Of a stretch of 64,000 bases of DNA, positions 1,462 through 26,135 are shown one piece after another (within the stretch, counting starts at the first letter, position 1; each line of letters starts with the position of its first letter). This DNA comes from an uncultured Bacilli bacterium. GTDB lineage: Bacteria; Bacillota_I; Bacilli_A; RF39; UBA660. The DNA lies in assembly GCA_948479395.1 (NCBI GenBank), contig CAOLUI010000002.1, positions 1,282 through 65,281 on the forward strand, written 5' to 3'. The position numbers and the translations under genes are program-made. Under the pieces are notes generated by a model, which searched no databases, was not told the DNA's origin, and saw only the letters and a list, made by a program, of their open reading frames with translations.

Positions 1462-1508
1462 GAAGGAGTCTTTTTTCATGTGTTATAATATTTTAAAAAG
1501 GTGATAGT

Positions 1509-3788: not shown

Positions 3789-3792
3789 TAAA

Positions 3793-3829
3793 GAACCTAT
3801 AAGAAAAAGATTATAGGTTTTTGTTTTTT
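3793..3829 (+). terminator. Rho-independent terminator-like hairpin
   Basis: aacctata-N10-tataggtt stem followed by tttgttttttt. Confidence 0.55.
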
Positions 3830-3859
3830 TATATGATAAAATATTTATAGAGGGTAAAT

Positions 3860-4708: not shown

Positions 4709-4715
4709 ATAAACC

Positions 4716-7954: not shown

Positions 7955-7997
7955 ATATGTAGATAGTAGTATTAAGATATGATATAATTAAGTAAAT

Positions 7998-9529: not shown

Positions 9530-10356
9530 TGAAAATAGCGGGAGTAGTTGTATGGTATAATCCAACAAATGATGACAAAAAAAACATTTATAGCTATTTG
9601 GAAAGTTTAGATAAATTATATATTTTTGATAATAGTAGTAAGAAAAACGATTTTAAATTGGATAAAAAAATTGAGTATATTTTTGCTGGAGAAAATGAAG
9701 GTATTGCTAAAGCATTAAATGTTACAGCCAAAAAAGCTATTGAAGACGGGTATGAATGGTTACTTACAATGGATCAAGATACAGTTTTTGAAAATGAAAA
9801 ATTAGAAAAATTAAAGAAGTTTATTGATAAAAAGGAAGCTAATGTCGCTATTATTTGCCCATGGTTAGAGACTAAATTAAAAATAGAAAAAAGTAAACAA
9901 GAACTAGATTATCCTTTAGATGTAATGACTTCTGGTAATTTGTTAAATTTAGCTATTTATAAAAAAATAGGGGGCTTTTTAGAGGAATTATTTATAGATG
10001 GTGTAGATATGGAATTTTGTTTACGTTTAAAAAAGCATGGCTTTAAAATAAAGAGAGTTAATTCGATATCTATTAAACATAATTTAGGGAATATTACTTA
10101 TAAAAATTTTTTAAAAAAAAGTTTATTATGTATGAATCATAATTATGTAAGATATTATTATAGAGTAAGAAATTATCATTATATACATGATTTATATTAT
10201 GATATTGAACCAGAATATTGTAAAAATATTATTAAATTTAGAGCAATGATTTGGTGTATAGTTTTTTATGAAAAAGATAAATATAGAAAGTTACGTGCTG
10301 TATATGAAGGCTATAAAGATTATAAAAAAGGGATTAAGGGAAAATATTATCATTGA
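9529..10356 (+). CDS. Glycosyltransferase family 2 (WbbL-like, possibly a rhamnosyltransferase)
   Basis: VVVWYNPT near the N-terminus and the GT-A DxD (LTMDQD) are typical of GT2 rhamnosyltransferase-like proteins. Confidence 0.6.
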   Translation: MKIAGVVVWYNPTNDDKKNIYSYLESLDKLYIFDNSSKKNDFKLDKKIEYIFAGENEGIAKALNVTAKKAIEDGYEWLLTMDQDTVFENEKLEKLKKFIDKKEANVAIICPWLETKLKIEKSKQELDYPLDVMTSGNLLNLAIYKKIGGFLEELFIDGVDMEFCLRLKKHGFKIKRVNSISIKHNLGNITYKNFLKKSLLCMNHNYVRYYYRVRNYHYIHDLYYDIEPEYCKNIIKFRAMIWCIVFYEKDKYRKLRAVYEGYKDYKKGIKGKYYH

Positions 10357-12533
10357 GGAGTTATAATATGAAAAAAGATAAAATAAAATATTTAATAAGT
10401 AAATCATTAAAAACACTGAAAGAAGAAGGAATTATTAAATTAATAAAAAAGATTTTTAGATATATTAAAATTAAAATTCATAAAACTAAACTTTCTTCTT
10501 GCAAAGATGTATTATTTATTAATGGGTGTTATCTACCTCATCCTGAAAGATATCGAGTTGATCATCAAATGGAACAATTAGAATCTTATGGTTTATCAGT
10601 TAATAAAATTTTTTTTGAAGATTTAGATATTTCGATGTTAAAGTTTTATAGATGTTTTGTTTTTTTTAGATGTCCAATAACGGAACAAATAGATAAATTT
10701 ATTGATAAAGCACATTATTTTAATAAAAAAGTGTTTTTTGATATAGATGATTTAGTAATTAATACAAAATATACAAATACAATTAAATATGTTCAAGAAA
10801 TGTCTCAAAGTGAAAAACATATTTATGATGATGGTGTTAATCGAATGGAAAAGACTTTACAGAAATGTGATTATATTATTACTTCAACGGATTCATTAGC
10901 ACATGAATTAAAAAAATATGGAAAAGAAGTCTTTGTTAATAGAAATGTTGTGTCTGAGAGAATGGTTGAATTATCTAAAGATGCAGTAAAAGATAGAATA
11001 AAAAACGAAAATGAAATTGAAATAGGGTATTTGAGTGGGAGTATTACTCATAATCCTGATTTTGAATTAATTAAAGATTCATTAATTAAAATAATGACTG
11101 AATATGATAATGTTTATTTACGTTTAGTGGGATATTTAAATATTCCAAAAGAATTTGATTGTTTTAAAGATAGAATAAGAGTAAGTCCTTTTGCTGATTG
11201 GCAAGATTTACCTAAAATAATTGCTAAATTGGATATAAATTTAGCTCCAATTGAAGAGTCTATTTTTAATGAAGCAAAATCTGAAAATAAATGGACAGAG
11301 GCGGCCTTGTGTAAAGTGGTTACTGTTGCTTCAGACTTTGGGGCATTTAAAACGAAAATTAAAAATAATGAAACTGGTTTATTATGTAAAACAAAAGATG
11401 ATTGGTATAAAAAATTGAAATTTTTAATTGATAATCCAGAGGAAAGATATCGTATGGCTAATAATGCTTATGATTATGTTTTAAAAAATTGTGTTGCTAC
11501 TTATTCAGGATTAGCTTTAAAGAAGTTTATAACTAGTAAACTAGTAAAAAACTTTGCCTTTGTTTTGCCTACTACAAATATTAGTGGTGGTGTAAATGTA
11601 GTGATTAAACATTGTAATATTTTACGTAATGCGGGTTTTGATGTTTCAATTTTAAATATGGCTCAATCTGATGAAAATATTATCAATAAAGATGGAGAAA
11701 TTAATGTTATAAGTGTATTAAAAACTGATATATTTGGGATATTTAATACTATGATTGCTACTTTATGGACTACTTTAGAATTTATAAAGTCTTATCCACA
11801 AGTTAATAAAAAATTATATTTGGTTCAAAATTTTGAAACTAATTTTTTGAATTATGGAAGTATTTCTAAAAGAGTTGCTAATGCTACATATAATTCATTA
11901 GATGATATAGAATACATTACTATATCAAAATGGTGTGAAAAATGGCTTAAGGAAGATTATGAAAAAGATTCTAAGTATGCTCCAAATGGGATAAATTTAG
12001 AACAGTTTCCTTTTAAGGAAAGAAATTTTAAAGGAAAAATTAAAGTTTTAGTTGAAGGAAACAGTGATGATTATTATAAAAATGTTGATGAAAGTTTTAG
12101 AATAATAGATAAATTGGATAAATCCAAATATGAAATCCATTTTTTATCTTACCAAGGTGAACCTAAAGAGTGGTATTATGTTGATAAGTTTTATCATAAG
12201 GTTCCATATGATGAAGTGGGAAAAATTTATCAACAAGCTGATATTTTAATAAAATCAAGTATTTTAGAAAGTTTTTCCTATCCTCCATTAGAAATGATGG
12301 CTACGGGTGGTATTTGTGTGGTTGTTCCAAATGATGGAAATATAGAATATTTAAAAGATGAAGATAATTGTTTGTTTTATGAACAAGGTAATATAGATGA
12401 AGCAGTTGAAAAAATTGAAAGAATTAGAAATGATAGTAAATTAAGAGAACATTTAATTAAAAATGGCTTAAAAACGGCTGAACAAAGAAGCTGGGAAAAA
12501 ATCGAAAAAGATATAAAAAAGCTTTATATGTAG
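10353..12533 (+). CDS. Large multidomain glycosyltransferase with two GT-B C-terminal-like modules
   Basis: 726 aa. The C-terminus carries a GT1 motif (ESFSYPPLEMMATGGICVV), and an internal region is also GT1-like (KWTEAALCKVVTVASDFG...NNETGLL). Confidence 0.55.
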   Translation: MRSYNMKKDKIKYLISKSLKTLKEEGIIKLIKKIFRYIKIKIHKTKLSSCKDVLFINGCYLPHPERYRVDHQMEQLESYGLSVNKIFFEDLDISMLKFYRCFVFFRCPITEQIDKFIDKAHYFNKKVFFDIDDLVINTKYTNTIKYVQEMSQSEKHIYDDGVNRMEKTLQKCDYIITSTDSLAHELKKYGKEVFVNRNVVSERMVELSKDAVKDRIKNENEIEIGYLSGSITHNPDFELIKDSLIKIMTEYDNVYLRLVGYLNIPKEFDCFKDRIRVSPFADWQDLPKIIAKLDINLAPIEESIFNEAKSENKWTEAALCKVVTVASDFGAFKTKIKNNETGLLCKTKDDWYKKLKFLIDNPEERYRMANNAYDYVLKNCVATYSGLALKKFITSKLVKNFAFVLPTTNISGGVNVVIKHCNILRNAGFDVSILNMAQSDENIINKDGEINVISVLKTDIFGIFNTMIATLWTTLEFIKSYPQVNKKLYLVQNFETNFLNYGSISKRVANATYNSLDDIEYITISKWCEKWLKEDYEKDSKYAPNGINLEQFPFKERNFKGKIKVLVEGNSDDYYKNVDESFRIIDKLDKSKYEIHFLSYQGEPKEWYYVDKFYHKVPYDEVGKIYQQADILIKSSILESFSYPPLEMMATGGICVVVPNDGNIEYLKDEDNCLFYEQGNIDEAVEKIERIRNDSKLREHLIKNGLKTAEQRSWEKIEKDIKKLYM

Positions 12534-12752
12534 CAAGATGTTAAATAAGAATGACTTTAAATATAAGATTTTCAATATTTTGGAAATTGTGTAGGGCAAG
12601 TCATTTTTTATTTTATTAGGTTTTAATCTATAGAAAAGTGAATTGCTTTGAAGTTTTACGATATTTTATTTTTTATAGGATTGCCATATGTAAAATACGT
12701 TTTAGTTGCTTTTCGCTTGAAATTGATGATATACTTTTATTAGGAGAGTAGT

Positions 12753-13352
12753 ATGAAGTTTAAATTGAGATATTTGATTTATGGAATAATTGGGTTAGTT
12801 ATAATTTTGATTAGTGTTTTATTGAAATTTAATGTAAATACTACAATTGGAAATAGTAATATTGTCGCAGTTGATTTTAAAAATGATATGAAAATTGAGA
12901 AAAGTTTTACTTCTTTATATAATGATTTAAATAAGATTGGGATTAAATTTGCAACATATATGTCTAAAAATAATCAAGGTGTTATGAATGTAAGAATTAT
13001 TGATAATTCTAATAATTTGGAAATATATAATCAAGACATAAAATTAAAAAATATTGTTGACAATGAATTTTATTATTTTGATTTTAATAACCAAAAAGAA
13101 TCTAAAAATAAAGAGTATAAAATAATTATAAAAGTTAAAGAAATGGATGATGATACGAATATAGGTATATGGGGCGATTATTCTTTAGATGAGATGGTAA
13201 AAGTTGATGCAAAAGCGATTGATAAAGATTATGTAATTATGGTAAATGGGAAGAATAATGATTATAAATTATTGTTATGTTTGGCTTTTTATGGAGTTAT
13301 TATAGCAATGATTGAAATCTTAAAAGAAAATGGTGGGAAGGTTAGAAAATGA
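12753..13352 (+). CDS. Hypothetical membrane-anchored protein
   Basis: N-terminal TM helix (IYGIIGLVIILISVLL), then a soluble domain and a C-terminal hydrophobic segment. Confidence 0.4.
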   Translation: MKFKLRYLIYGIIGLVIILISVLLKFNVNTTIGNSNIVAVDFKNDMKIEKSFTSLYNDLNKIGIKFATYMSKNNQGVMNVRIIDNSNNLEIYNQDIKLKNIVDNEFYYFDFNNQKESKNKEYKIIIKVKEMDDDTNIGIWGDYSLDEMVKVDAKAIDKDYVIMVNGKNNDYKLLLCLAFYGVIIAMIEILKENGGKVRK

Positions 13353-15199
13353 AAGTTTTAGATAAATTAGAAAATTTGAAAAATAAACATAAGTTTTTAA
13401 TATTAATCATTATTTCTGCACTTATCTTTGCATTTAACGCTTTATTTTATAATCATCAAATATTAAAAATCGATAAAGACAATCGAAATTATTTAGTAGA
13501 TTTTAATAAAAAAAGTGAAATAAAACAAATAAATTTAAAAGGGAAATATGTACGAGAATTAACGATTAAGTATAAAACATCAGATGATTTTCTTATATCG
13601 TATAATGGAGAAGTAGCAAATAATTATGGAGTATATAAAGAATTTAAAAAGGAAGAAACGTGTTATAGTTATGCAGATTCTTGTGGAATAAGGATAAATC
13701 AAAAAGTTGGAATTTTAAATATAGATATAGATTCTTCTGATGTAGATTTGTTAGAAATAAGTGTTAATAATAGTTTTTATTTTAATTGGGTAACATTTGT
13801 TTTTTGGTTTGTTTTGATAAATTTAATATTAGTAATTGTTATGTATAAATCTTATTTTAGTAAAAAATTGCATGTTTTAACTTTTTTGATTTGTGCATCA
13901 CTCGGCTTTTTACTTTTAATTTCGGAGCATAATATGACAACGACAACTTTGGATGATGATAATCATTATGGTGTTTTTAATTCATTAAATAAAACTAGTG
14001 ATGAGACAAGTGTTACTAATTATTATTTAGAAAATTGTTTTGTTAATTTTCGCAGTCAAGATACATTATTTGAAAAGAAAAATTTTCAAAATTTTATGAA
14101 TGAAAATTCCAAAGTGAAAATTGCTAATTTTAAATCAGATGTTAATTTATTAAATACAAATAAAATTAATTATTTACCATTAGCTTTATTATTAAAAGTA
14201 TTAAATATAATAGGAGTGAAACAAACAGTAGCTTTCTTTTTGGGAAGAGTAATGCAACTTTTAATGTATACTATTGTTATTTCATTAGCTGTTAAAATTA
14301 TGCCTAATTATAAGTTATTAATGATGATAATTGGAATACTCCCACAAAGTATATTTTTAGCGACTAATTATAGTTATGATCCAACGGTTACAGCATTTTT
14401 ACTTTTAGCTTTTTCTTGTTTTGCCAATGAATATTTTAATAAAGATAAAAAGATTAAAAAAAGTAATATTTTGATATTTATCTTTGCAGCATTATATGGA
14501 GCATTCCCGAAAGCTATTTATTCACCCATTATATTGCTTATGTTATTATTGCCTAAAGAAAAGTTTTATTCAAATAAACAATACAAATGGTTTAGAGGGA
14601 TAATAGTTTGTTTATTTATTCTTAGTATGGCGACATTTCTTTTACCTCTAATTACTGATCCATCAGCAAGAGCAGATACTAGAGGGGGAGATACCTCATC
14701 GGTTAGACAATTAAAATTAATGTTTCATTGTCCTATTTCTTTTATTAAAACTTTTTGGAATGAAGCTATTTTGAATACTTTTGGAAGACTGCTTTCGCCA
14801 GTAACTTTGGGGCAATTTTCTTATTATGGAAGTATGGGTTTAGATACAAGTTATTTTCTTTTCCTAATATCATTAATTATTGCTTTTGTTTCTGAAAAAA
14901 AGCGTAGCAAAATTCTTTTAAAGGATAAAATTATAATGATATTAATTTATATATTTATTATCTGTTCAATTTGGGGATCAATGTATTTATTATTTACGCC
15001 AGTGGGAGAAGCAACAATTAATGGAGTACAAAATAGATATTTTATTCCATTATTATTGCCAATTATTTATTGTTTTTCAAATATTAAATTGAAAAGTGAG
15101 ATGAATGATAAAAGTTTAATGGTTACATGTTCTCTAATAAGTATTATTGCTATTACTTTACTAATTTATAATCTTGTGATTAAAATGTATTGTTTGTAG
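13349..15199 (+). CDS. Polytopic membrane protein, putative GT-C-type glycosyltransferase or polysaccharide-modifying enzyme
   Basis: 616 aa with more than 10 TM helices. It lies directly upstream of a GtrB-like gene, as in the GtrB plus GT-C three-component glycosylation arrangement. Confidence 0.35.
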   Translation: MKVLDKLENLKNKHKFLILIIISALIFAFNALFYNHQILKIDKDNRNYLVDFNKKSEIKQINLKGKYVRELTIKYKTSDDFLISYNGEVANNYGVYKEFKKEETCYSYADSCGIRINQKVGILNIDIDSSDVDLLEISVNNSFYFNWVTFVFWFVLINLILVIVMYKSYFSKKLHVLTFLICASLGFLLLISEHNMTTTTLDDDNHYGVFNSLNKTSDETSVTNYYLENCFVNFRSQDTLFEKKNFQNFMNENSKVKIANFKSDVNLLNTNKINYLPLALLLKVLNIIGVKQTVAFFLGRVMQLLMYTIVISLAVKIMPNYKLLMMIIGILPQSIFLATNYSYDPTVTAFLLLAFSCFANEYFNKDKKIKKSNILIFIFAALYGAFPKAIYSPIILLMLLLPKEKFYSNKQYKWFRGIIVCLFILSMATFLLPLITDPSARADTRGGDTSSVRQLKLMFHCPISFIKTFWNEAILNTFGRLLSPVTLGQFSYYGSMGLDTSYFLFLISLIIAFVSEKKRSKILLKDKIIMILIYIFIICSIWGSMYLLFTPVGEATINGVQNRYFIPLLLPIIYCFSNIKLKSEMNDKSLMVTCSLISIIAITLLIYNLVIKMYCL

Positions 15200-15217
15200 A
15201 AAAGATGTGATGCAAGA

Positions 15218-15940
15218 ATGGAAAAAAAAGATAAAGTTTTATTTGTTATACCGGCTTATAATGAAGAAGAAAATATTGCCAAAGTTTTAAATGAAATAAA
15301 AAATGATGCTTCTTTTGCGGATATAGTAGTTTTAAATGATTGTTCTAGGGATAATACAAAAGAGATTGTTGAGCAAAATAATGTTAAATGTATTACTAAT
15401 ATTTTTAATATGCGATATGCTTGGAATGTTCAAACTGGTATTAAATATGCCTATCAAAATAATTATGATTATGTGATTCAATTTGATGCTGATGGGCAAC
15501 ATATTGCTAAAGAGGCGATTAAATTATATGAAAAGATGAAAAAAACTAATTGTGATATTGTAATAGGTTCAAGATATTTGAAAGATACTGGTTATCCTTG
15601 TCCTTTATTTCGAAGAATAGGAACAAGAATTTTTGAATTTGTAATTAAACTTTTTTGTAAACAAAGAATTGCTGATCCCTTATCAGGATTTCAATGTTTA
15701 AATAAAAAAGTTATTGAAAGATATGCTATTATGGGAAATTATCCAGAATTCCCTGATGCTAATTTAGTAATAGAAATGTTGCTTTTGGGATATAAAATTG
15801 AGGAAGTTCCGGTTAAAATGCGTTTAAGAGAAGCGGGAGAGAGTATGCACGGGGGAGTTATAAAACCAATTAAGTATATGATAAATATGTTTTATACAAT
15901 TATTTTTATTTTAATTCAATATCCAAGGAAAGGAAAATAG
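15218..15940 (+). CDS. GtrB/CsbB-like GT2 undecaprenyl-phosphate sugar synthase
   Basis: VLFVIPAYNEEENI, DCSRDNT and the DAD motif match Dpm1/GtrB-like GT2 enzymes. Confidence 0.75.
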   Translation: MEKKDKVLFVIPAYNEEENIAKVLNEIKNDASFADIVVLNDCSRDNTKEIVEQNNVKCITNIFNMRYAWNVQTGIKYAYQNNYDYVIQFDADGQHIAKEAIKLYEKMKKTNCDIVIGSRYLKDTGYPCPLFRRIGTRIFEFVIKLFCKQRIADPLSGFQCLNKKVIERYAIMGNYPEFPDANLVIEMLLLGYKIEEVPVKMRLREAGESMHGGVIKPIKYMINMFYTIIFILIQYPRKGK

Positions 15941-15943
15941 ATA

Positions 15944-16279
15944 ATGAAAAAGACTTATTTTATTATTATTGCTCTAGTTGTTTTTGTTTATATAATTAGG
16001 GAGATAAGAAAAAAAAGATTTTCTATTAAAGAAAGTTTTTGGTGGGTAATAGCAGCACTTGTGATGCTTATATTATCAATTTTTCCTTATTCTATAGATA
16101 GATTAGCCAACTTTTTAAAAATTTCTTATCCTCCTTCTTTATTGTTTGTTTTATGTATTGTTTTTTTAGTATTTATAAATTTTAGAAGTAGTAAAAAAAT
16201 TGCAGAACAACAAGAAAAAATAATTGAATTGGGTCAAGAGCTTGCTATAATTAAAGATAAAGTAAGAGGAAAAAAATGA
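15944..16279 (+). CDS. DUF2304-family small membrane protein (common partner of GtrB-like transferases)
   Basis: 111 aa with 3 TM segments and a C-terminal coiled region; it sits at the conserved position after the GtrB-like gene. Confidence 0.55.
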   Translation: MKKTYFIIIALVVFVYIIREIRKKRFSIKESFWWVIAALVMLILSIFPYSIDRLANFLKISYPPSLLFVLCIVFLVFINFRSSKKIAEQQEKIIELGQELAIIKDKVRGKK

Positions 16280-17706
16280 AAAAAAGCACAAAAGTAAATG
16301 TAATATATAATCTTATTTATCAATTACTTACAATATTATTACCCTTAGTAACAACTCCTTATATTTCAAGGGTACTTGGTGCCGATTCTGTAGGAATATA
16401 TGGATATACTTTAGCAATATCCATGTATTTTATATTGTTTGGATCTTTAGGAATTTCGATGTATGGACAAAGAGAAATAGCTAAAAACCAAGACAATGCA
16501 AAGAAATATTCTGTTATTTTTTGGGAATTATGTATTATTCGTTTTATTACAATTTTTATAGCAATTATTATTTATTTAGCTTTGTTTTGTTTAAATAATC
16601 AATATTCTTTATATTATATTATTTTAATCCTTTATATTTTAGCTTCGGCTTTTGATATTAATTGGTATTTTCAAGGGATAGAAGATTTTAGTAAAACCGT
16701 AATTAGAAATATTATAGTTAAATCTTTAGGTTTAGTATTGACTTTTGTGTTTGTTAAAACGGCAAATGATTTATGGATTTATATGTTAATATTTGCTGCG
16801 ACAGAGTTATTAGGCAATTTATCTCTTTGGTTTTATGTTCCAAAATATATTGAAAAGCCAAAGAGAAAAGAACTTAATTTAAAAAAACATTTTAAGTTAA
16901 TTATGCTTTTATTAGTTCCGCAAATAGCTACTCAAATTTATACAGTTTTAGATAAAACGATGGTGGGATTAATAACAAAAGATATGAGTGAAGTAGGTTT
17001 TTATGAACAATCACAAAAAATTGCTAGAGCTGCATTAGTTATTGTAAATGCGATGCAAACTGTAATGAATTCTAAAGTAGCGAATGCCTATATAAAAAAG
17101 AATAATAAAGAACTTGTAAAAAATTTAAAAATTAATTTTGATTATGTATGGTTTTTAGGGATACCTTTAACAATTGGAATGGCTATAGTATCTAGTAATT
17201 TAGTTCCTTGGTATTTTGGTAATGGTTTTGATAGAGTAGAAAATATTTTAAAATTTATTTCGCCAATAATAATTATAATAGGATTAAATGGGGTTACTGG
17301 AATAGTTTATTTAATTCAAACAGAAAGACAAAATATTTATACTAGATCTGTAATTTTTGGGGCTTTAATAAATGTAGTTGCTAATTTTATTTTAATTAAT
17401 TTATATGGAGCAGTGGGAGCGGCAATAGCATCAGTAATAGCAGAAATAGCAATATTTATATATCATTTTAAATATATAAAAAATGTGTATAAAATAAAAG
17501 ATATATTTAAACAATCTAGTAAATGTTTATTTGCAGGTTTAGTTATGGCATTGGCTTTATTATTTTTTATAAATCGTTTGACTCCATCAATTATTCATAC
17601 CATTTTTTTAGTAGGTATTGGGTTTATAACTTATATTGGAATATTATTTATAGTAAAATATGATTATATATGCAATATAATAAACAAAAGAAAAAAATTG
17701 AGGTAA
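16276..17706 (+). CDS. wzx: Wzx-like polysaccharide flippase (MOP/PST family)
   Basis: 476 aa, about 12-14 TM segments, PST-family length and topology. Confidence 0.7.
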   Translation: MKKSTKVNVIYNLIYQLLTILLPLVTTPYISRVLGADSVGIYGYTLAISMYFILFGSLGISMYGQREIAKNQDNAKKYSVIFWELCIIRFITIFIAIIIYLALFCLNNQYSLYYIILILYILASAFDINWYFQGIEDFSKTVIRNIIVKSLGLVLTFVFVKTANDLWIYMLIFAATELLGNLSLWFYVPKYIEKPKRKELNLKKHFKLIMLLLVPQIATQIYTVLDKTMVGLITKDMSEVGFYEQSQKIARAALVIVNAMQTVMNSKVANAYIKKNNKELVKNLKINFDYVWFLGIPLTIGMAIVSSNLVPWYFGNGFDRVENILKFISPIIIIIGLNGVTGIVYLIQTERQNIYTRSVIFGALINVVANFILINLYGAVGAAIASVIAEIAIFIYHFKYIKNVYKIKDIFKQSSKCLFAGLVMALALLFFINRLTPSIIHTIFLVGIGFITYIGILFIVKYDYICNIINKRKKLR

Positions 17707-17710
17707 AAGT

Positions 17711-19672
17711 ATGAAATTATATTTAAGATTAATTTATAGATATTATCGATATACACATAATATAGGAAAAACAATATTGTTTGCAATAAAAGCAATATTT
17801 AAGTATTATTCGCCTAGTAAGAATTTAGAATCTACGGAACAGTTAAAAAGATTATTTAAAAAAATAGAGATTGTTATTCCAGAAAAGGGATTTGTTTACT
17901 TTATAGACATACATAAGACAATTACAAGAAAAAATCGAACAATAGATAATATTACAATTGATTATGAATTTATATTAGAAAATTCTTTAAATGACTTGCG
18001 AAAAAAAGCTCAGAAAATGAGAAATCAAGATTTTAAAGAAGAATTAATTCAAACGATAGAAGCAATAGAGTTATTAATAGATCGAATAATTGCTTTGAAT
18101 ATAAAAAATAATTGTATTCAATATATTAAAAATATTAAAGATAAGAAAGTATTATCTTTTGAGGATGCCTTACAAAGAATATTGTTTTTTAATCAACTTT
18201 TATGGCAAACAAATCATAATTTAAATGGTTTAGGAAGATTAGATTTGATTTTGGAAAAGTTTTATCAAGAAGATATTAAAAAGAATAAAATTACTAAGTC
18301 TAAAGCGACTTTATTAATTACTGATTTTTGTCAAGCGTTAAATAATTATTATTGGGTAAAAAGTAATGGATTAGTAGGAGATACAGGACAGGTGATTATT
18401 TTAGGAGGACTTAGGGATAATGGAACTTATTTTTCTAATGAATTAACGGAAATTTTTATAGAAGTAATAAAAAAATTACAAAAACCAGATCCAAAACTTA
18501 TCTTAAGAGTTGCTAATGATATGCCATCAAATTTATTAGATATGGCTCTTCTATCAATCAAAACTGGAATAGGAAGTCCTCTTTTGTCTAATGATGAGGT
18601 AATTATTCCTAAACTTATTGAATTGGGATATGAAAAAAAAGATGCCTATAATTATTGTACTTCTGCTTGTTGGGAACCATATATTCCGGGAGTTTCTTTT
18701 GATCAAAATAATGTTGATACTTTTGTGTATGCTGAATCTTTAATTCAAGTTTTAGAACAGGAAAACTTAGAATCTATTAATAATTTTGCAGCATTTTATA
18801 AAAAGTATGAAGAATACTTAGAAAGATCTATCAATGATTTTATAAGGAAAGTAAATAGAATTCATTTTGTAAAAGACCCTTTAATTTCTTTAACTTCGCC
18901 TTCTTGTTATATGAATGAATACGATATTGGTGAGGGAGGAGCAAAGTATAATCATTTTGGTTTTACAACAGTTTCGATGTCTAATACGGTAAATTCGTTA
19001 TTGATTATAAAAAAGTATTGTTTTGAGAAAAAAATATTATCTTTAAATGAGTTAAATAAGATTAGAAAAGAAAATTATGGAAGAAAAGAATATGTTGAAA
19101 AATTTAAAAAGGAAAAAAATAGGTATGGCGTTGATAATGAAGAAGTTATTGATTTGACGAAAAAAATAAGTCGAAAAGCATCTAGTATTTTTAGAAAACA
19201 AAAAAATTATCTCGGGGGAATATTTAAAATTGGATTAAGCTCACCATCTTATATAACAAAGAGTAAATTTCCGGCAACTTTAGATGGAAGAAAGAATAAT
19301 GAACCATTTGATGTTCATATTTCTAATGAACTTGCTAGTTATACGGAGATAATAAATTTTGCAGCTAGTATGGATTATGGAGAAAATAGAATAAATGGAA
19401 ATGTTGTAGATATTATGATGAATCCTATTTATTTGACAAATAATATGGAAAAAATAAAAACTTTAATACTAGTCGGAATTAAAAAAGGTTTTTATCAAAT
19501 GCAATTTAATGTTGTTTCTAGCGAAATGCTTATAAAAGCTAAAAGTAATCCAGAAAATTTTAAAAATTTAATAGTTCGAGTTTGGGGTTTTAGTGCTTAT
19601 TTTGTAGATTTACCAGAAAGTTATCAAGATTTACTAATAGAAAGAGCTTTAGAAAATGAAAGTAAGAATTAG
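17711..19672 (+). CDS. Divergent small glycyl-radical enzyme (GRE)-like protein, possibly YjjI/DUF3029-like
   Basis: The C-terminus IVRVWGFSAYFVDLPESYQDLLIERA resembles the glycyl-radical domain (RVSGY...) in two variant positions. A candidate thiyl-Cys loop YNYCTSACWEPYIPG lies about 310 aa upstream of the Gly, as in GREs. The gene overlaps a PflA-type activase gene. Confidence 0.55.
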   Translation: MKLYLRLIYRYYRYTHNIGKTILFAIKAIFKYYSPSKNLESTEQLKRLFKKIEIVIPEKGFVYFIDIHKTITRKNRTIDNITIDYEFILENSLNDLRKKAQKMRNQDFKEELIQTIEAIELLIDRIIALNIKNNCIQYIKNIKDKKVLSFEDALQRILFFNQLLWQTNHNLNGLGRLDLILEKFYQEDIKKNKITKSKATLLITDFCQALNNYYWVKSNGLVGDTGQVIILGGLRDNGTYFSNELTEIFIEVIKKLQKPDPKLILRVANDMPSNLLDMALLSIKTGIGSPLLSNDEVIIPKLIELGYEKKDAYNYCTSACWEPYIPGVSFDQNNVDTFVYAESLIQVLEQENLESINNFAAFYKKYEEYLERSINDFIRKVNRIHFVKDPLISLTSPSCYMNEYDIGEGGAKYNHFGFTTVSMSNTVNSLLIIKKYCFEKKILSLNELNKIRKENYGRKEYVEKFKKEKNRYGVDNEEVIDLTKKISRKASSIFRKQKNYLGGIFKIGLSSPSYITKSKFPATLDGRKNNEPFDVHISNELASYTEIINFAASMDYGENRINGNVVDIMMNPIYLTNNMEKIKTLILVGIKKGFYQMQFNVVSSEMLIKAKSNPENFKNLIVRVWGFSAYFVDLPESYQDLLIERALENESKN

Positions 19673-20417
19673 TAATATTCAGCGCTTTTGTCTTCATGAT
19701 GGGCCTGGTATTCGTACAACTATTTTTTTTAAAGGGTGTAATTTAAAATGTCCTTGGTGTTGTAATCCAGAAAATATGGATTATGAAATAAAGGAATTTG
19801 AAGAAGAAGGGATTGTAAAAAAATGGGGTTATGATATTGAAATAAAAGATTTATATAAGGAAATTATGAAAGATAAAGATTATTATCAAAATGAGGGCGG
19901 AATAACTTTATCAGGGGGAGAAGCATTATTACAAATTACGAAATATGAAGAGTTATTAAAGATGTTAAAAAAAGAAAAAATAAATATTTGTTTGGAAACT
20001 TCTTTAGCTGTGCCAGAAAAAAATGTTGAGATAGCTATGAAATATATAGATGACTATTTTGTAGATGTAAAGATATTATTAAAAAAAGAAGCACAAAATA
20101 TTTTAAATTTAAATATTGATCTTTATCAACATAATTTGGATTTATTAATAAAAAATAATAAAAATATAACTTTAAGATTTCCGGTTAATAAAGAATATAC
20201 TTCTAAGCAAAAAAATATTGAATTAATTGGAAAAGTATTAAAAGAAAATGCTAGTTTAAAAATAGAAATCTTTAAAACTCATAATTTAGGAGAAAGTAAA
20301 TATCAAAAATTAAATAAGCAATATCAAAAAATTTTAGAGATATCAGATCAAGAATTAGAAGCAATTTATAAAGCATTAAAAAGATATACTCAAAATGTAA
20401 AAATAATAGAAATGTAG
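19656..20417 (+). CDS. Glycyl-radical enzyme activating enzyme (radical SAM, PflA family)
   Basis: The N-terminus CLHDGPGIRTTIFFKGCNLKCPWCCNPE is the canonical GRE-activase motif with a CxxxCxxC cluster; 253 aa. Confidence 0.8.
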   Translation: MKVRISNIQRFCLHDGPGIRTTIFFKGCNLKCPWCCNPENMDYEIKEFEEEGIVKKWGYDIEIKDLYKEIMKDKDYYQNEGGITLSGGEALLQITKYEELLKMLKKEKINICLETSLAVPEKNVEIAMKYIDDYFVDVKILLKKEAQNILNLNIDLYQHNLDLLIKNNKNITLRFPVNKEYTSKQKNIELIGKVLKENASLKIEIFKTHNLGESKYQKLNKQYQKILEISDQELEAIYKALKRYTQNVKIIEM

Positions 20418-20425
20418 ATGGTAAT

Positions 20426-22300
20426 ATGAAAAAAAAAATAGCTATATTTACAGGGTTTTATTTGCCTCATCTTGGAGGAGTTGAAACATATACATTTAAT
20501 TTGGCAACGGAGTTAGTTAAACAAGGTTATGATGTGATAATTGTAACTTCAAATTATAATAATGAAAAAAATTATGTCAAAAATAAAATATCAATTTATA
20601 AATTACCAGTTTATAAATTATTTAAAAATAGATATCCGATTTTGAAAAAAAATAATGATTATAAATCATTAATAAATAAATTACAAGATGAAAATATAGA
20701 TTATGTTTTATGTAATACAAGATTTTATACAACGTCTTTTTTAGCTGCAAATTTTGCGAAAAAGAATAATTTACCAATTATTTGTATTGATCACAGTAGC
20801 GGACATTTAAGTGTTGATAATAAAGTCTTAGATTTTTTTGGTGCTATTTATGAACATTTTCTAACTTTCAGATTAAAATATAAAATTAAAGATTATTATG
20901 GAGTTTCTAAAAGGAGTAATGAGTGGTTAAATCATTTTAAAATTAAAGCCTCGGGAGTTTTTTATAATTCAGTTGATAAAAATTTGTATAATGAATACAA
21001 AGATAAAAACTATAGAAAAGAATTTAATAATAAAATTGTTTTAAGTTATGTAGGAAGAGTTATTAAAGAAAAAGGGTTATATAATCTTTTGGATGCTTTT
21101 AAGTTATTAGAAAAAAAATATCAAAATCTTGTTCTGGTAATAGCAGGCGATGGAACTTCTTTAAATGATTTGAAAGAGAAATATAAGAGTAAAAATATTG
21201 TTTATTTAGGAGGAGTAGATCATGATGAAGTAATGAAACTATTGAGTCAAACAGATATTTTTATTCATCCATCAATGTATCCTGAAGGATTGCCTACAGT
21301 TATATTAGAAGCGGGATTAATGAAAAATGTTGTTTTAGCAACTGATCGAGGCGGAACAAAAGAAGTAATAAATAAAAAAACGGGGATTATTATTGAAGAA
21401 AATGTCGAATCAATTGTGGAAAATGTTGAAAAATTATTAAATAATGAAAAATTAATGAATGAATATAAAGAGAATATTCATCAAGAAGTGAAGGAAAAAT
21501 TTACGTGGAATATTAATGCCCAAAAAGTAATTGAAGCTTTTGAAAGGAAAGAAAAAATGGATAATAGTAGTGTTAGTATTTTTGTAGCTGCTCATAAAAA
21601 GGCGAAATTTCCAGACGATAAAATGTATATACCTATTAGAGTAGGGGCGGCTTTAAATAAAGATGATTTTGGATATGTTCGAGATGATACAAAAGATAAT
21701 ATATCTAATAAGAATAAATCTTTTTGTGAACTTACTGCTACATATTGGATTTGGAAAAATGATAAATCAGATATAGTGGGTTTAACTCATTATAGAAGAT
21801 ATTTTTTTAAAAGAAAAAAGAAAATGGATTTTAAGAATATATTAAATAAAAAAGATATTATAAGTATTTTAAAGGATTATGATATTATTGTTCCTAATAG
21901 GACTTTTATAATAAAACATAATGCTAAAAATTCATGGTATAAAACACATATAGCAAAGGATTATGATTTAGTAAGAGATATTATTTCGGAAAAGTATCCT
22001 GATTATTTAGAAAGTTTTGATAAGTTTTCGAGGAAAAAGACTTTATATATTTGCAATATGTTTATTACAAGGAAAGAAATATTTGATGATTATTATTCTT
22101 GGTTATTTGATATTTTATTTGAGTTAGAAAAAAGAGTCGATATTAGCAAGTATGATGATTATAATAAAAGATTATTTGGTTTTATGTCAGAAAGATTGTT
22201 TAATGTATGGTTATTAAACCATAAAGAATTAAAAATTAAACGAATGCCTGTTTATAACACAGATAAGAGACCTTATAATCAATATTTAATGATAAATTAA
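20426..22300 (+). CDS. Bifunctional glycosyltransferase: N-terminal GT4 (GT-B) plus C-terminal DUF4422 (GT111-like galactofuranosyltransferase domain)
   Basis: The N-terminal GT4 domain has GLPTVILEAGLMKNVVLATDRGG. The C-terminal domain starts IFVAAHKKAKFPDDKMYIPIRVGAALN, typical of DUF4422. The gene is adjacent to glf. Confidence 0.65.
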   Translation: MKKKIAIFTGFYLPHLGGVETYTFNLATELVKQGYDVIIVTSNYNNEKNYVKNKISIYKLPVYKLFKNRYPILKKNNDYKSLINKLQDENIDYVLCNTRFYTTSFLAANFAKKNNLPIICIDHSSGHLSVDNKVLDFFGAIYEHFLTFRLKYKIKDYYGVSKRSNEWLNHFKIKASGVFYNSVDKNLYNEYKDKNYRKEFNNKIVLSYVGRVIKEKGLYNLLDAFKLLEKKYQNLVLVIAGDGTSLNDLKEKYKSKNIVYLGGVDHDEVMKLLSQTDIFIHPSMYPEGLPTVILEAGLMKNVVLATDRGGTKEVINKKTGIIIEENVESIVENVEKLLNNEKLMNEYKENIHQEVKEKFTWNINAQKVIEAFERKEKMDNSSVSIFVAAHKKAKFPDDKMYIPIRVGAALNKDDFGYVRDDTKDNISNKNKSFCELTATYWIWKNDKSDIVGLTHYRRYFFKRKKKMDFKNILNKKDIISILKDYDIIVPNRTFIIKHNAKNSWYKTHIAKDYDLVRDIISEKYPDYLESFDKFSRKKTLYICNMFITRKEIFDDYYSWLFDILFELEKRVDISKYDDYNKRLFGFMSERLFNVWLLNHKELKIKRMPVYNTDKRPYNQYLMIN

Positions 22301-22313
22301 TGGTGGTGATAAA

Positions 22314-23423
22314 ATGAAAAAATATGATTATGTAATAGTGGGTGCTGGTTTATTTGGGGCTACTTTTGCTCAAAAAGCGCATGCCGAAGGAAAGAAAGTT
22401 TTGGTTATTGATAAAAGAAGTCATATAGCAGGAAATATTTACACAGAGGAAGTAGAGGGAATTAATGTTCATAAGTATGGGGCCCATATTTTTCATACTG
22501 ATTATAAGGATGTTTGGGATTATATAAATTCTTTTGGGGAATTTAATCGATATACTAATGCACCAATAGCTAGAATTGGAAATGAAATTTATAATATGCC
22601 GTTTAATATGAATACTTTTGCTAAAATATGGGATGATGTATTTACGCCAAAGGATGCGATAAGACATATAAATGAGGAGAAAAAGGAAATTACGGGAGAA
22701 CCGCAAAATTTAGAAGAACAAGCAATTTCTTTGGTCGGAAGAACAATTTATGAAAAATTAGTGAAAGGTTATACGGAAAAACAATGGAATCGTGATTGTA
22801 AAGATTTACCAGCTTTTATTATAAAAAGATTACCAGTAAGGCTTACTTTTGATAATAATTATTTTAATGATAGATATCAAGGAATTCCCATTGGAGGATA
22901 TACTAAGTTGGTAGAGAAAATGTTAGATGGAATTGAGGTAAAGCTTAATACTAATTTTTTTGATGATATAGAATATTATAAAGAAATAGCAGAGTATATA
23001 GTTTATACTGGTCCAATAGATGAATATTTTAATTATTCTTTGGGTACTTTAGAATGGCGAAGTTTAAAGTTTGAAACAAAGGTTTTAGATGAAGAAAATT
23101 ATCAAGGAAATGCTGTTGTAAATTATACGGGTCATGAAGTAGATTATACTAGAGTAATTGAACATAAACATTTTGAATTTGGTAACCAAAGTAAAACAGT
23201 TATAACTTTTGAATATCCAGCAGATTATAAAGAGGGAATGGAAAAATATTATACAATAAATGATGAAAAAAATAATGAATTAGCAGAGAAATATCGTGAT
23301 CTTGCGAAAAAGGAAGAAAAAGTTATTTTTGGTGGAAGACTTGCCGAATATAAATATTATGATATGGATGATGTTATTAAAAGAGCTTTTGAAGTATCAA
23401 ATGAATATTTAAAGGATGAATAA
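22314..23423 (+). CDS. glf: UDP-galactopyranose mutase
   Basis: FAD-binding N-terminus YDYVIVGAGLFGATFA; the length (369 aa) and conserved blocks match Glf. Confidence 0.9.
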   Translation: MKKYDYVIVGAGLFGATFAQKAHAEGKKVLVIDKRSHIAGNIYTEEVEGINVHKYGAHIFHTDYKDVWDYINSFGEFNRYTNAPIARIGNEIYNMPFNMNTFAKIWDDVFTPKDAIRHINEEKKEITGEPQNLEEQAISLVGRTIYEKLVKGYTEKQWNRDCKDLPAFIIKRLPVRLTFDNNYFNDRYQGIPIGGYTKLVEKMLDGIEVKLNTNFFDDIEYYKEIAEYIVYTGPIDEYFNYSLGTLEWRSLKFETKVLDEENYQGNAVVNYTGHEVDYTRVIEHKHFEFGNQSKTVITFEYPADYKEGMEKYYTINDEKNNELAEKYRDLAKKEEKVIFGGRLAEYKYYDMDDVIKRAFEVSNEYLKDE

Positions 23424-23488
23424 ATCATCTTTTTTTTTATTATGGTTTTAAGGTTAAAAAATAGCTTATTAACATATTTAATTATAAA

Positions 23489-23497
23489 TGGTATAAT
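23489..23497 (+). promoter_or_regulatory. Extended -10 promoter element (TGgTATAAT)
   Basis: tggtataat sits 22 nt upstream of the ATG at 23519. Confidence 0.4.
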
Positions 23498-23518
23498 TTT
23501 TTTAGAAAGAAGAATTAA

Positions 23519-25186
23519 ATGAAAAAAAGCAAATTTTTAGATATAAATTATTTTATTATTTTTATAGTATCCTTATTGTTAATTTTTCCACTTATAAACA
23601 ATTTATATTTTGAAGGACACGATACGGGATATCATATAGCTAATATCTTAGCTATAAGTGATAACTTAAGTTATCATAATCTATTTAATTTAAAAATCTT
23701 TCCTTTAATTGCGAATAATTTTGGTTATGGTTCAGGAATATTTTATCCGCAGCTTTCGCATTTCATGGCGGCTTTGATTTATAATGTTTTTCCAAATATT
23801 TTAGTTTTTACTTCTTTGAAAATTACTAATTTTATTATTATTTTTTTATCGGGAATTTTGATGTATAGATTTATGAAAGTATCCACAAAGAATAAAAAAT
23901 TAGCTTTTTTAGCGACGATTTTTTATTTAACTATACCTTATAAAATATATGATTATTTGGTAAGAGATGCAGTAGCTGAGTCTTTAGTTTTTGTTTTTTT
24001 ACCATTAATTTTTTTAAGTTTTTATTATATATTTAATAAACAATATAAAAAGTTTTATATTAATTTTATTATAGGTTATGTGGGGTTGATTAATTCTCAT
24101 TTGGTAATGACTATTTATGTAACTTTATTTTTAATTGTTATTTTAATTACGCAATTTAAAAAGTTTTGGAATAGAGAAATAATTAAGAGGTGTTTTAGAG
24201 CAACTGGAGTAGTTTTATTGATTTGTTTACCATTTATTATTCCTTTAATAACGCATCTGGTAAGGGGCTCTTATGTTGTATTTGATAAAGGGCAAATGGC
24301 CAATAGATTTGGAGTTTATAGCGGCGGATTAAATATTTATCATTATTTTATTGGATGGCCTAAGGAAATTGGATATCATTTTTTAAATATCGTAGGTTTT
24401 TTGTTAGTTATTTATTTGATAGTTAAATTGAAAAAAGCGAATATGATAAAAAGAAAATTACAACAAGATTATTTATTTGCAACTGGTTTAATTTGTACTA
24501 GTTTAGGAATATGGATGTCTTCTTTATTATTTCCGTGGTTTTTAATGCCAAATTTTTTATTAATGATTCAGTTTCCTTGGCGACTAGGGACATTTACGGG
24601 AATAGGAATTAGTATTTTAGTTTATTATGCTTTTTTAGAAATTAAAGATATGTATTGGAATAAAGCGTATATATTAAGTATTATATTTTGTATTTTAGTA
24701 GCTATTTTTTGTATAATGGCTCAAGACTATAAAAAATTGTCTATTGATGATTATAATTTGTCACAACTTGGAATGGGATGGCAAAAAGAATATTTACCCG
24801 TTAAGCTAAAAAAGAAGCAAAAATATTTGAAAAAAAGGGGAAATGATATTTTGGTAATGAAAGGTAATGCCTTAATAACTAATGTAATAAATGATACGCC
24901 ATATCTAAAATTTCGAGTAGATGAGGTATCAGATGCAGTATTAGAGTTACCACGAATTTATTATTTAGGGTATAAAATAACAGTTGATTATGGAGATAAA
25001 AAAGAGAATATTTCTTATAAAGAGAATGAAAATGGTTTTATAGAGATAAGTTTGAAAAAAAGTGCTATAATTGAAGTAGATTATGAAGGAACGCCACTAG
25101 CAAGAATTAGCAATAAAATAAGTGTAATAACTATGATGGGATTTTTGATTTTTATTGTTTTTAAAAGAGGTGAGGAAAATGGCTAA
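23519..25186 (+). CDS. Polytopic membrane protein, candidate GT-C fold glycosyltransferase (ArnT/YfhO-like)
   Basis: 555 aa with about 12 TM helices, a conserved acidic/His motif in the first loop (EGHDTGYH) and a C-terminal soluble domain. It is followed by a CsbB/ArnC-like GT2. Confidence 0.4.
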   Translation: MKKSKFLDINYFIIFIVSLLLIFPLINNLYFEGHDTGYHIANILAISDNLSYHNLFNLKIFPLIANNFGYGSGIFYPQLSHFMAALIYNVFPNILVFTSLKITNFIIIFLSGILMYRFMKVSTKNKKLAFLATIFYLTIPYKIYDYLVRDAVAESLVFVFLPLIFLSFYYIFNKQYKKFYINFIIGYVGLINSHLVMTIYVTLFLIVILITQFKKFWNREIIKRCFRATGVVLLICLPFIIPLITHLVRGSYVVFDKGQMANRFGVYSGGLNIYHYFIGWPKEIGYHFLNIVGFLLVIYLIVKLKKANMIKRKLQQDYLFATGLICTSLGIWMSSLLFPWFLMPNFLLMIQFPWRLGTFTGIGISILVYYAFLEIKDMYWNKAYILSIIFCILVAIFCIMAQDYKKLSIDDYNLSQLGMGWQKEYLPVKLKKKQKYLKKRGNDILVMKGNALITNVINDTPYLKFRVDEVSDAVLELPRIYYLGYKITVDYGDKKENISYKENENGFIEISLKKSAIIEVDYEGTPLARISNKISVITMMGFLIFIVFKRGEENG

Positions 25187-26135
25187 GGAAGTTATAAGTG
25201 TTGTAGTATCTTGTTATAATGAAGAAAAATCTTTACCATTATTTTATAAAGAGTTAAGTAAGATTTTTGATAATATTTCGAAGTATAAGTTAGAACTTAT
25301 TTTAGTAAATGATGGAAGTAAAGATAAAACATTAGATGAAATGAAGAAATTATATAGAGAGGATAATAGAATAAAATATATTTCTTTTTCCAGAAATTTT
25401 GGAAAGGAAGCGGCGATGTATGCGGGGCTTGTTAATACAACAGGAGATTATGTAGCTTTAATGGATGCGGATTTACAAGATCCTCCCTCTCTTCTTCCCG
25501 ATATGCTAGAAATATTAAAAAATGAAGAAAATGAGTATGATTGTGTGGCAACCCGAAGAGTTAGCAGAACAGGAGAACCACCAATTAGAAGTTTTTTTGC
25601 ACGAGCTTTTTATAAAATAATTAATAAGATGTCAGATGTTGAATTAGTTGATGGGGCAAGAGATTATCGTTTAATGAAAAGAAAAATGGTAGATGCTATT
25701 TTAGAGTTAAAGGAGTATAATCGTTTTTCCAAAGGGTTATTTGGCTTTGTGGGTTTTAATACTAAATGGTTAGAATATAAAAATATTGAAAGAGTTGCGG
25801 GAGAGACTAAGTGGTCTTTTTGGAAGTTATTTAAATATGCTATTGAAGGAATTGTTGCTTTTACTACTGTACCTCTTACTATCGCTGCAGTTTTAGGAAT
25901 ATTGTTTTGTATAATTGCTTTTGTAATGATTATAGTAATTATTTTTAAGACTTTAATTTTTGGCGATCCCACGAGTGGCTGGCCTTCAATGATTTGTGTA
26001 ATATTTTTAGTTAGTGGTGTTCAATTGTTTTGTTTAGGGATTATAGGAGAGTATTTATCTAAAACTTATTTAGAAACTAAAAAAAGACCAATTTATATAG
26101 TGAAAGAAACGGAAAAAGATTTAGAAAAAAAATAA
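25155..26135 (+). CDS. GT2 undecaprenyl-phosphate glycosyltransferase (CsbB/ArnC-like) with C-terminal TM helices
   Basis: ISVVVSCYNEEKSLP, NDGSKDKT, DADLQD, plus two C-terminal TM segments. Confidence 0.75.
   Translation: MFLKEVRKMAKEVISVVVSCYNEEKSLPLFYKELSKIFDNISKYKLELILVNDGSKDKTLDEMKKLYREDNRIKYISFSRNFGKEAAMYAGLVNTTGDYVALMDADLQDPPSLLPDMLEILKNEENEYDCVATRRVSRTGEPPIRSFFARAFYKIINKMSDVELVDGARDYRLMKRKMVDAILELKEYNRFSKGLFGFVGFNTKWLEYKNIERVAGETKWSFWKLFKYAIEGIVAFTTVPLTIAAVLGILFCIIAFVMIIVIIFKTLIFGDPTSGWPSMICVIFLVSGVQLFCLGIIGEYLSKTYLETKKRPIYIVKETEKDLEKK

Follow-up and report, generated by a model that had tools for sequence, protein, structure and literature searches.

Why should a gene for a glycyl radical enzyme (GRE), together with the gene for its activating enzyme, lie in the middle of a surface-polysaccharide locus? 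The question is raised by a 64-kb stretch of DNA from an uncultured Bacilli bacterium (the window, meaning the whole of the stretch analyzed), in which a 653-aa GRE and a radical S-adenosylmethionine (SAM) activase are encoded between a Wzx flippase and a bifunctional glycosyltransferase (GT). According to a June 2026 review, all characterized GREs except ribonucleotide reductase (RNR) are catabolic (PMC13450708). The classes that it recognizes are RNR, formate lyases, decarboxylases, X-succinate synthases, eliminases, isomerases, and aminoacyl radical enzymes (PMC13450708), and the words polysaccharide, glycan, and capsule appear nowhere in it. A search of the full-text literature likewise gave nothing relevant tying GREs to polysaccharide biosynthesis, capsule, flippase, galactofuranose (Galf), or Methanobrevibacter. 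Here, we compare the window enzyme and its surroundings with those of its relatives. A role in glycan biosynthesis appears very likely, and our explanation as a whole, that the GRE and its activase form a functional pair dedicated to surface-glycan biosynthesis rather than to fermentation or catabolism, is the best that we can offer and in our judgment a probable one.

Identity and fold of the short GRE

The window protein has the two domains of a pyruvate formate-lyase (PFL)-like GRE, a PF02901 PFL-like catalytic domain (E value of 2.5e-65; residues 137 to 511, profile positions 241 to 639) and a C-terminal PF01228 Gly_radical domain (E value of 5.3e-13), and with them the RVxG glycine, the Cys-loop cysteine, the barrel, and the activase expected of such an enzyme. 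The coordinates, genes, and motif positions given in an earlier note on this DNA were all confirmed by open reading frame (ORF), Pfam, and motif checks, and its estimate of about 310 residues between the Cys and Gly loops agrees with the 306 residues that separate Cys320 from Gly626. An AlphaFold2 model built with 27 homologues as input (predicted local distance difference test score [pLDDT] of 89.4; predicted template modeling score [pTM] of 0.90) has the ten-stranded beta/alpha barrel, in whose center the Gly and Cys hairpins come together, and Foldseek template modeling (TM) scores normalized to the query were 0.79 to 0.85. The assignment as a GRE made in the earlier note thus also holds at the level of predicted structure.

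The closest matches are GREs of the eliminase and isomerase types, and the CXE motif (Cys320 to Glu322) is a hallmark of these two classes (PMC13450708). Other parts of the earlier note fared less well. Membership in the YjjI/DUF3029 group, put forward there for so small a protein, found no match to TIGR04040 or PF11230 at an E value of ≤0.01, PF11230 leaving only faint marks, on two distant homologues. The C terminus, described there as divergent, is only mildly so, since R-V-x-G-[FY]-S-A-x-F is also found in PflD, 1,2-propanediol dehydratase (PD), and glycerol dehydratase (GDH); what is distinctive is the Trp at the x of R-V-x-G, which is a signature of the family. The best NCBIfam match was to TIGR01774 (PFL2/glycerol dehydratase subfamily), at 236.8 bits against a cut-off of 678.2 and over profile positions 243 to 782 only, which leaves the protein outside that subfamily. 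On every equivalog model (sulfopropanediol dehydratases, HypD, CutC, decarboxylases, PFL), its score was far under the cut-off (147 against 1050 for CutC). Neither NCBIfam nor Pfam has a model specific for the family. Judged by its sequence, the window GRE is a member of a distinct short-GRE family without a dedicated curated model. Orthology with GDH, PD, CutC, HypD, IslA, and others was rejected because scores lie far under equivalog cut-offs and key residues differ.

A word-indexed search returned 849 homologues at an E value of ≤1e-10, the best 120 of which are nearly all 650 to 696 aa long and 47 to 79% identical to the window protein; an exhaustive search of 1.84 billion cluster representatives returned 625 at an E value of ≤1e-30, other GRE families included. 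In an alignment of 78 family members (38 to 51% identity to the window protein), C320-W321-E322-P323, N334, R623, V624, G626, and S628 are invariant (78/78), and N80, H169, H536, and W625 are kept in at least 93% of the members. Several positions look specific to the family, other residues occupying them in the aligned PflD, PD, and GDH: N80, R156, H169, K262, W321, N334, K506, H536-I-S, N564, D567, and W625. Two of them, W321 and W625, flank the two radical-bearing residues. A truncated GRE or a pseudogene is ruled out by the fully modeled fold, by homologues of 650 to 700 aa being the norm, and by the invariance of the catalytic residues.

The size deficit is found mainly ahead of beta1 and just past it. 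Up to residue 138, which aligns with PflD residue 244, the window GRE has ~106 residues fewer than PflD, and the alignment of Asn80 with PD His166 leaves ~79 residues ahead of beta1 where ~165 are usual. The N-terminal helices of GREs form a conserved dimer interface (PMC13450708), and this interface may be altered in the window GRE. The basic and aromatic amphipathic segment at the N terminus (MKLYLRLIYRYYRYTHNIGKTILFAIKAIFKYYSPS) is proposed to dock to the membrane, replacing part of the canonical N-terminal dimer helices. Throughout the family, the median net charge of the first 45 residues is +8, with seven aromatic residues among them, whereas that of the protein as a whole is about -1.

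A single-cluster activase

With 186.1 bits, the activase clears the cut-off of the general GRE-activase model TIGR02494 (174.35); it falls below the PflA equivalog TIGR02493 (120.8 against 231.75), the YjjW model (84.7 against 250.2), CutD, and other equivalogs; it is, therefore, a member of the general subfamily only. Since it has only six Cys residues and its TIGR02494 match skips the ferredoxin-type insert, it is a single-cluster, PflA-sized activase without such an insert. This layout (about 250 aa, one CX3CX2C cluster, no ferredoxin insert, gene adjacent to that of the GRE) is that of the PFL-activating enzyme (PflA) type and differs from that of the GDH and PD activases, which have extra Fe-S clusters. 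The overlap of the two genes claimed in the earlier note amounts to 17 nt, and the cluster motif CNLKCPWCCNPE indeed occupies activase residues 28 to 39.

Conserved polysaccharide context and a cassette-like arrangement

A scan of GTDB species-representative genomes confirmed 270 encoded relatives, and the loci of 80 of these were fetched, their ORFs called and then clustered by BLAST; the full-flank subset consisted of the 37 whose contigs extend 8 kb or more beyond the GRE gene in both directions. The polysaccharide linkage on which the earlier note had staked its proposal extends to all of them, the 80 loci being without exception polysaccharide clusters. Of the 376 genes that lie no more than 6 kb from the GRE gene, 342 share its strand. 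An activase is encoded in 74 of the 80 loci, and its gene mostly adjoins that of the GRE; 72 of these loci were recovered by clustering, the others having a frameshifted copy (L027) and a copy 5 kb off (L051); three further loci are on contigs that end too early to tell.

A Wzx of one single BLAST cluster is encoded in 55 of the 80 loci and mostly abuts the GRE, in the order Wzx-GRE-activase in metagenome-assembled genomes (MAGs) of Clostridia and Bacilli and in the order GRE-Wzx-activase in Lachnospiraceae and Oscillospiraceae, for instance in L070 from the Lachnospiraceae genome MGYG-HGUT-00136. The Wzx proteins of GRE loci have a median pairwise identity of 44%, and identities correlate with those of the GRE at r = 0.60 for Wzx and r = 0.81 for the activase. 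Since flippases that serve different repeat units tend to diverge much more than this, the pattern looks cassette-like, and Wzx and the GRE look as if they travel together. A c5-type GT2 usually stands just 5' of wzx/GRE, and the other neighbors are all polysaccharide genes: GT2, GT4, GT111, LicD, IspD-like, short-chain dehydrogenase/reductase (SDR), acyltransferases, Wzy-like proteins, initiating transferases, and pyruvyl transferases.

Most of the hosts belong to the Clostridia, Lachnospiraceae, Oscillospiraceae, and Bacilli of gut and rumen, joined by single bins of Eggerthellaceae, Muribaculaceae, and Aeromonadales, all as labeled in MAG bins, which may contain errors. Fifteen of the 80 loci come from Methanobrevibacter genomes or MAGs (L018, L019, L021, L024, L025, L030, L033 to L036, L040, L045, L047, L048, and L067), and these too encode Wzx, Glf, and GT111 proteins of the same clusters as the bacterial loci, which suggests that the cassette moved between gut bacteria and archaea. 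All characterized PFL-like GREs are bacterial, and no archaeal one has a known function (PMC13450708).

A relative of 35% identity (P0221) again lies in a polysaccharide locus. A sister short GRE (P0232; 702 aa; 29% identity), on the other hand, is encoded with its activase in a sugar-catabolic locus and is an uncharacterized catabolic GRE. Hence, the short-GRE branch seems to handle carbohydrates in general, a single lineage having been recruited to biosynthesis. The gene of this sister GRE lies at 7393 to 9501 of L089 and 6968 to 9076 of L090, with the activase gene 5' of it and genes for a sugar ABC transporter, TIM, SIS, FAD oxidoreductases, and an AraA-like isomerase as neighbors.

Three observations on single loci or clusters were made along the way. 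A conserved 322-aa protein without any Pfam or NCBIfam match (cluster c7) is encoded in 18 loci (in L009 at 12760 to 13728) and not in the window, often between the activase and Glf or just ahead of the GRE, and could represent a new transferase of the cassette. One locus (L082) has two GRE copies of the family, at 1 to 1200, where the contig end cuts it, and at about 9845 to 11870. In three loci (L077, L081, and L084), the order is Glf-GT111-GRE, followed by a 660-aa HAD-like protein or LicD.

Fusions to the flippase and to a glycosyltransferase

Fusions were found among representatives of clusters made at 50% identity. The GRE is fused to Wzx in P0178 (1125 aa) and P0220 (1053 aa) and to a c5 GT2 in P0131, P0145, and P0157 (about 988 aa). 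By cluster, the Wzx domains (c2) and the GT2 domains (c5) of these fusions group with the usual free-standing neighbors, and the basic N-terminal segment of the GRE is retained as a linker. Four of these proteins (P0178, P0220, P0131, and P0145) were checked on their contigs (L085 to L088), and in each case an activase gene follows and the locus is a polysaccharide locus. Assembly artifacts are unlikely, given five independent 50%-identity representatives and four of four checked cases with activase and basic linker, each fusion being on a single contig only. Taken together with the basic and aromatic N terminus, the fusions suggest that the GRE most likely works on the cytoplasmic side of the membrane, close to the flippase and to the transferase that acts last, i.e., with the c5-type GT2 and Wzx.

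Beside these fusions, a second radical SAM protein (Radical_SAM_C) is encoded directly 3' of the activase of a Wzx-GRE fusion (L085, 5252 to 6160), and an 870-aa ferredoxin/FrhB-like/polysaccharide-pyruvyl-transferase fusion is encoded 3' of the activase of a GT2-GRE fusion (L088, 11809 to 14421).

Galactofuranose genes near the GRE

After the activase and Wzx, the most frequent neighbor is the UDP-galactopyranose mutase Glf, which is encoded in 25 of the 37 full-flank loci, ahead of any single GT cluster. In capsule and O-antigen loci, glf is found in a minority. Counting Glf, GT111, or a WbbI-like Galf transferase together, 31 of the 37 full-flank loci have at least one of them. Glf lies inside the GRE block, adjoins it, or is one gene away from it in 30 of 44 loci; it is inside the block in L064 and L066 (GRE-Wzx-Glf-activase), and in the window the order is activase, GT4-GT111, Glf. 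Cluster c22 resembles the beta-1,6-galactofuranosyltransferase WbbI (280 bits, below the model cut-off), and the c5 GT2 gives a weak match to GlfT1. The DUF4422 domain corresponds to the GT111 galactofuranosyltransferase fold (PMC12269835).

Organization of the window locus

The features of the window are collected in Table 1. The locus opens with a WecA/TagO-like initiating GT, followed by GtrA, an O-antigen-ligase-like protein joined to a GT4, a GT2, a DUF1972-GT1, and a TOD1/MUCI70-like protein; then come an ABC transporter pair, further GTs, a DUF2142 membrane protein, a PpgS-like GT2, and DUF2304; the last part consists of Wzx, the GRE, the activase, the GT4-GT111, Glf, a DUF6541-like membrane protein, and a GT2. 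Genes for a single-chain PFOR and RecG lie 3' of it, which suggests a bacterium with a GC content of 24 to 25%. The spacing from the wzx stop to the ATG of the GRE gene is 4 nt, and a GAGG stands 8 nt 5' of that ATG. The GC content of the window is very low (22 to 29%), and copies of the identical locus are present in mouse-gut and other metagenome contigs.

Table 1 Positions in the window of the polysaccharide locus, the GRE, and their parts
Feature	Position	Strand	Evidence or remark
Whole polysaccharide locus, all genes co-directional	48..26135	+	ORF calls and profile matches
c5-cluster GT2 (rhamnosyl-/GlfT1-like)	9529..10356	+	
Wzx flippase, member of the GRE-co-inherited Wzx cluster c2	16276..17706	+	PF01943
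GRE, 653 aa, short CXE-type family	17711..19672	+	ATG start
N-terminal basic/aromatic amphipathic segment of the GRE, residues 1-36, MKLYLRLIYRYYRYTHNIGKTILFAIKAIFKYYSPS	17711..17818	+	Proposed membrane-docking element
beta1 motif RTIDNITIDYE of the GRE	17936..17968	+	Asn80 at the position of PD His166
Cys loop SACWEP of the GRE, residues 318-323	18662..18679	+	Catalytic Cys320, CXE Glu322, family-specific Trp321
Gly loop IVRVWGFSAYF of the GRE, residues 621-631	19571..19603	+	Predicted radical-bearing Gly626, Trp625
GRE-activating radical SAM enzyme, 253 aa, single-cluster, PflA-sized	19656..20417	+	
CX3CX2C cluster motif CNLKCPWCCNPE, activase residues 28-39	19737..19772	+	
Bifunctional GT4 + DUF4422 glycosyltransferase (GT111 fold)	20426..22300	+	
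UDP-galactopyranose mutase Glf	22314..23423	+	TIGR00031, 409 bits

Other parts of the locus deserve mention in their own right. A 759-aa fusion (1509 to 3788) joins an O-antigen-ligase/Wzy_C-like membrane domain to a GT4, and a 416-aa protein (6704 to 7954), here part of a bacterial cell-wall polysaccharide locus, has a glycosyltransferase-like domain of the TOD1/MUCI70 type. Immediately 5' of wzx (13349 to 16279), consecutive genes encode a polytopic DUF2142 membrane protein, a PpgS-like GT2 of the polyprenyl-phosphate sugar synthase type, and DUF2304, a trio that looks like a three-component extracytoplasmic glycosylation module and that is also found (clusters c13, c9, and c11) 5' of wzx/GRE in about 6 to 10 related full-flank loci. 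An Rfam scan of the whole window at gathering thresholds returned no RNA family.

Discussion

The family described here appears to put a familiar GRE and activase architecture to a new biosynthetic, and probably membrane-associated, use. Among characterized enzymes, PflD and YbiW, C-O lyases of 1,5-anhydromannitol-6-phosphate and 1,5-anhydroglucitol-6-phosphate also called GRE isomerases (PDB 8ID0, 8YJO, and 8ID7), are 20 to 23% identical to the window GRE, which is ~110 to 125 residues shorter, mostly at the N terminus; they are catabolic ("anhydroglycolysis"), whereas the window family is found in biosynthetic glycan loci. The B12-independent 1,2-diol dehydratases GDH and PD (PDB 1R8W and 5I2A) share the CXE motif and the fold (Foldseek TM scores in the range given above). 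PD His166, equated with the proposed general acid His164 of GDH, is Asn80 in the window GRE by HMMER, in an alignment that is weak around beta1, and the diol-binding Asp447 of GDH is Asn334, also by HMMER. With Asn80 and Asn334 in place of His and Asp, the window GRE is not an orthologue of the glycerol or propanediol dehydratases. Farther away, AprD4 is a sugar diol dehydratase of the radical SAM type and not a GRE, and class III RNR belongs to the other division of GREs and requires an external reductant; neither is tied to Wzx-dependent glycan assembly. The nearest counterparts in genomic setting are the cytoplasmic tailoring enzymes of lipid-linked repeat units, such as polysaccharide pyruvyl transferases and O-acetyltransferases, which are encoded next to GT and Wzx genes and act before flipping, and PS_pyruv_trans genes do co-occur in several loci of the GRE family; their chemistry is polar, however, and their folds are unrelated to that of the radical GRE.

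We propose the following mechanism. The activase would use SAM and its single [4Fe-4S] cluster to generate a radical on Gly626, which would be passed on to Cys320. The Cys320 thiyl radical would then take a hydrogen from a carbinol carbon of the sugar, Glu322 of the CXE motif would deprotonate the hydroxyl of that carbon, and the adjacent C-O bond would be broken, either by 1,2-elimination (dehydration) or by an isomerizing C-O lysis. Return of the hydrogen from Cys320 would yield a deoxy-keto or deoxy-aldehydo sugar, to be built into the repeat unit that the neighboring Wzx exports. Two candidate targets are UDP-Galf, the product of Glf, and a Galf residue of a lipid-linked intermediate. We lean slightly toward CXE-type C-O chemistry on a sugar, and a target related to Galf is put forward as a tentative choice. 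In the most specific form of the proposal, which we consider unlikely as it stands, a GRE docked by its basic N terminus beside the GT2 and Wzx would dehydrate the exocyclic C5-C6 diol of Galf, in UDP-Galf or linked to undecaprenyl pyrophosphate, to a 5-deoxy-6-aldehydo or 6-deoxy-5-keto furanose; this diol would be chemically analogous to the substrates of GDH and PD. If true, this would be the first GRE to tailor a glycan intermediate at the membrane, and it would imply a previously unknown, anoxia-only sugar that gut Firmicutes and Methanobrevibacter carry on their surfaces and that a dedicated Wzx subtype recognizes.

Nevertheless, several observations weigh against a GRE that acts on Galf at the membrane. 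GRE active sites are normally buried and take small substrates (PMC13450708). No Galf gene is found within 10 kb in 6 of the 37 full-flank loci, and the enrichment of Galf genes near the GRE is probable, not proven, having been counted in GRE-bearing loci only. In the 37 full-flank loci, the GRE has no constant companion among reductases, aminotransferases, or other enzymes that would process a keto or aldehyde product further, the commonest candidate being an SDR in 11 of them. No activase is encoded within 10 kb in 3 of the 80 loci (L077; L081 of Pilosibacter fragilis CSJ-4; L084), where it may be encoded elsewhere. One of the GT2-GRE fusion loci (L088) has an ABC transporter and no Wzx. Finally, in P0136 (815 aa), a small PglD_N-like domain (cluster c21) precedes the GRE, and this fusion partner and the free c21 neighbors resemble the nucleotide-sugar-binding N-domain of PglD, which favors a soluble nucleoside diphosphate (NDP)-sugar as the substrate over a lipid-linked one.

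Part of this evidence would be accommodated if the GRE were an anaerobic deoxygenase or dehydratase of a soluble pyranose NDP-sugar, with a chemistry similar to that of AprD4 or of the half-reaction with which class III RNR begins, and with Galf merely a co-component of the glycan. The CXE motif and the sugar-handling relatives suit such an enzyme as well, the loci devoid of Galf genes would be explained, and both the GT2-GRE and the PglD_N-like-GRE fusions could serve to channel a donor sugar. However, no nucleotidyltransferase or other precursor gene is common to the loci, Glf being the only one that is, and in most of them Glf lies within or beside the GRE block; moreover, the Wzx-GRE fusions and the basic N terminus point to the membrane. 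We regard a soluble pyranose NDP-sugar as a rather unlikely substrate.

Still less probable is that the GRE supplies the polysaccharide with a substituent or precursor made from a small nonsugar molecule, such as glycerol, 1,2-propanediol, a choline-like amine, or another polyol. The rank of GDH and PD among the best matches (E values of 1e-41 to 1e-45) would agree with it, as would LicD and IspD-like genes, each present in 7 of the 37 full-flank loci. Against it stand the two Asn residues at the positions of the general-acid His and of Asp447 of GDH, the scores far below the cut-offs of the CutC and PFL2/GDH models, and the lack of a conserved transporter or kinase for such a molecule, LicD and IspD being minority neighbors. 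The same substitutions of the glycerol- and propanediol-binding His and Asp speak against the polyol precursor that the earlier note had offered as one option. Its central idea, an undescribed radical step in glycan synthesis carried out by a GRE and activase encoded in a polysaccharide operon, has on the contrary gained strong backing from the 80 loci, the co-traveling Wzx and Galf genes, and the fusions, the dehydration or deoxygenation that it named being still what we infer from the motif and relatives. That the GRE is a catabolic or fermentative enzyme that merely happens to lie in the locus, or an inactive relic without a glycan role, is very improbable: the catabolic nature of all characterized PFL-like GREs (PMC13450708), the frameshifted activase of L027, and the three loci without a nearby activase would fit, but they are set against polysaccharide loci throughout several bacterial groups and one archaeal genus, co-directional neighbors, fusions to Wzx and GT2, invariant catalytic Gly, Cys, and Glu, and, in the related loci, no microcompartment, aldehyde dehydrogenase, or substrate-transporter genes seen near the GRE.

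If a populous GRE family does take part in the assembly of surface polysaccharides, the superfamily would gain a biosynthetic function at the membrane, and the Methanobrevibacter members would be the first PFL-like GREs of archaea to which a role can be assigned. Strict anaerobes of gut and rumen would then carry a sugar modification, made by an oxygen-sensitive radical step, that standard glycan chemistry has not reported. The small cassette of Wzx, GRE, activase, and Glf constitutes a directly testable target, and such a modification of surface glycans could have consequences for phage receptors, immune recognition, and strain typing.

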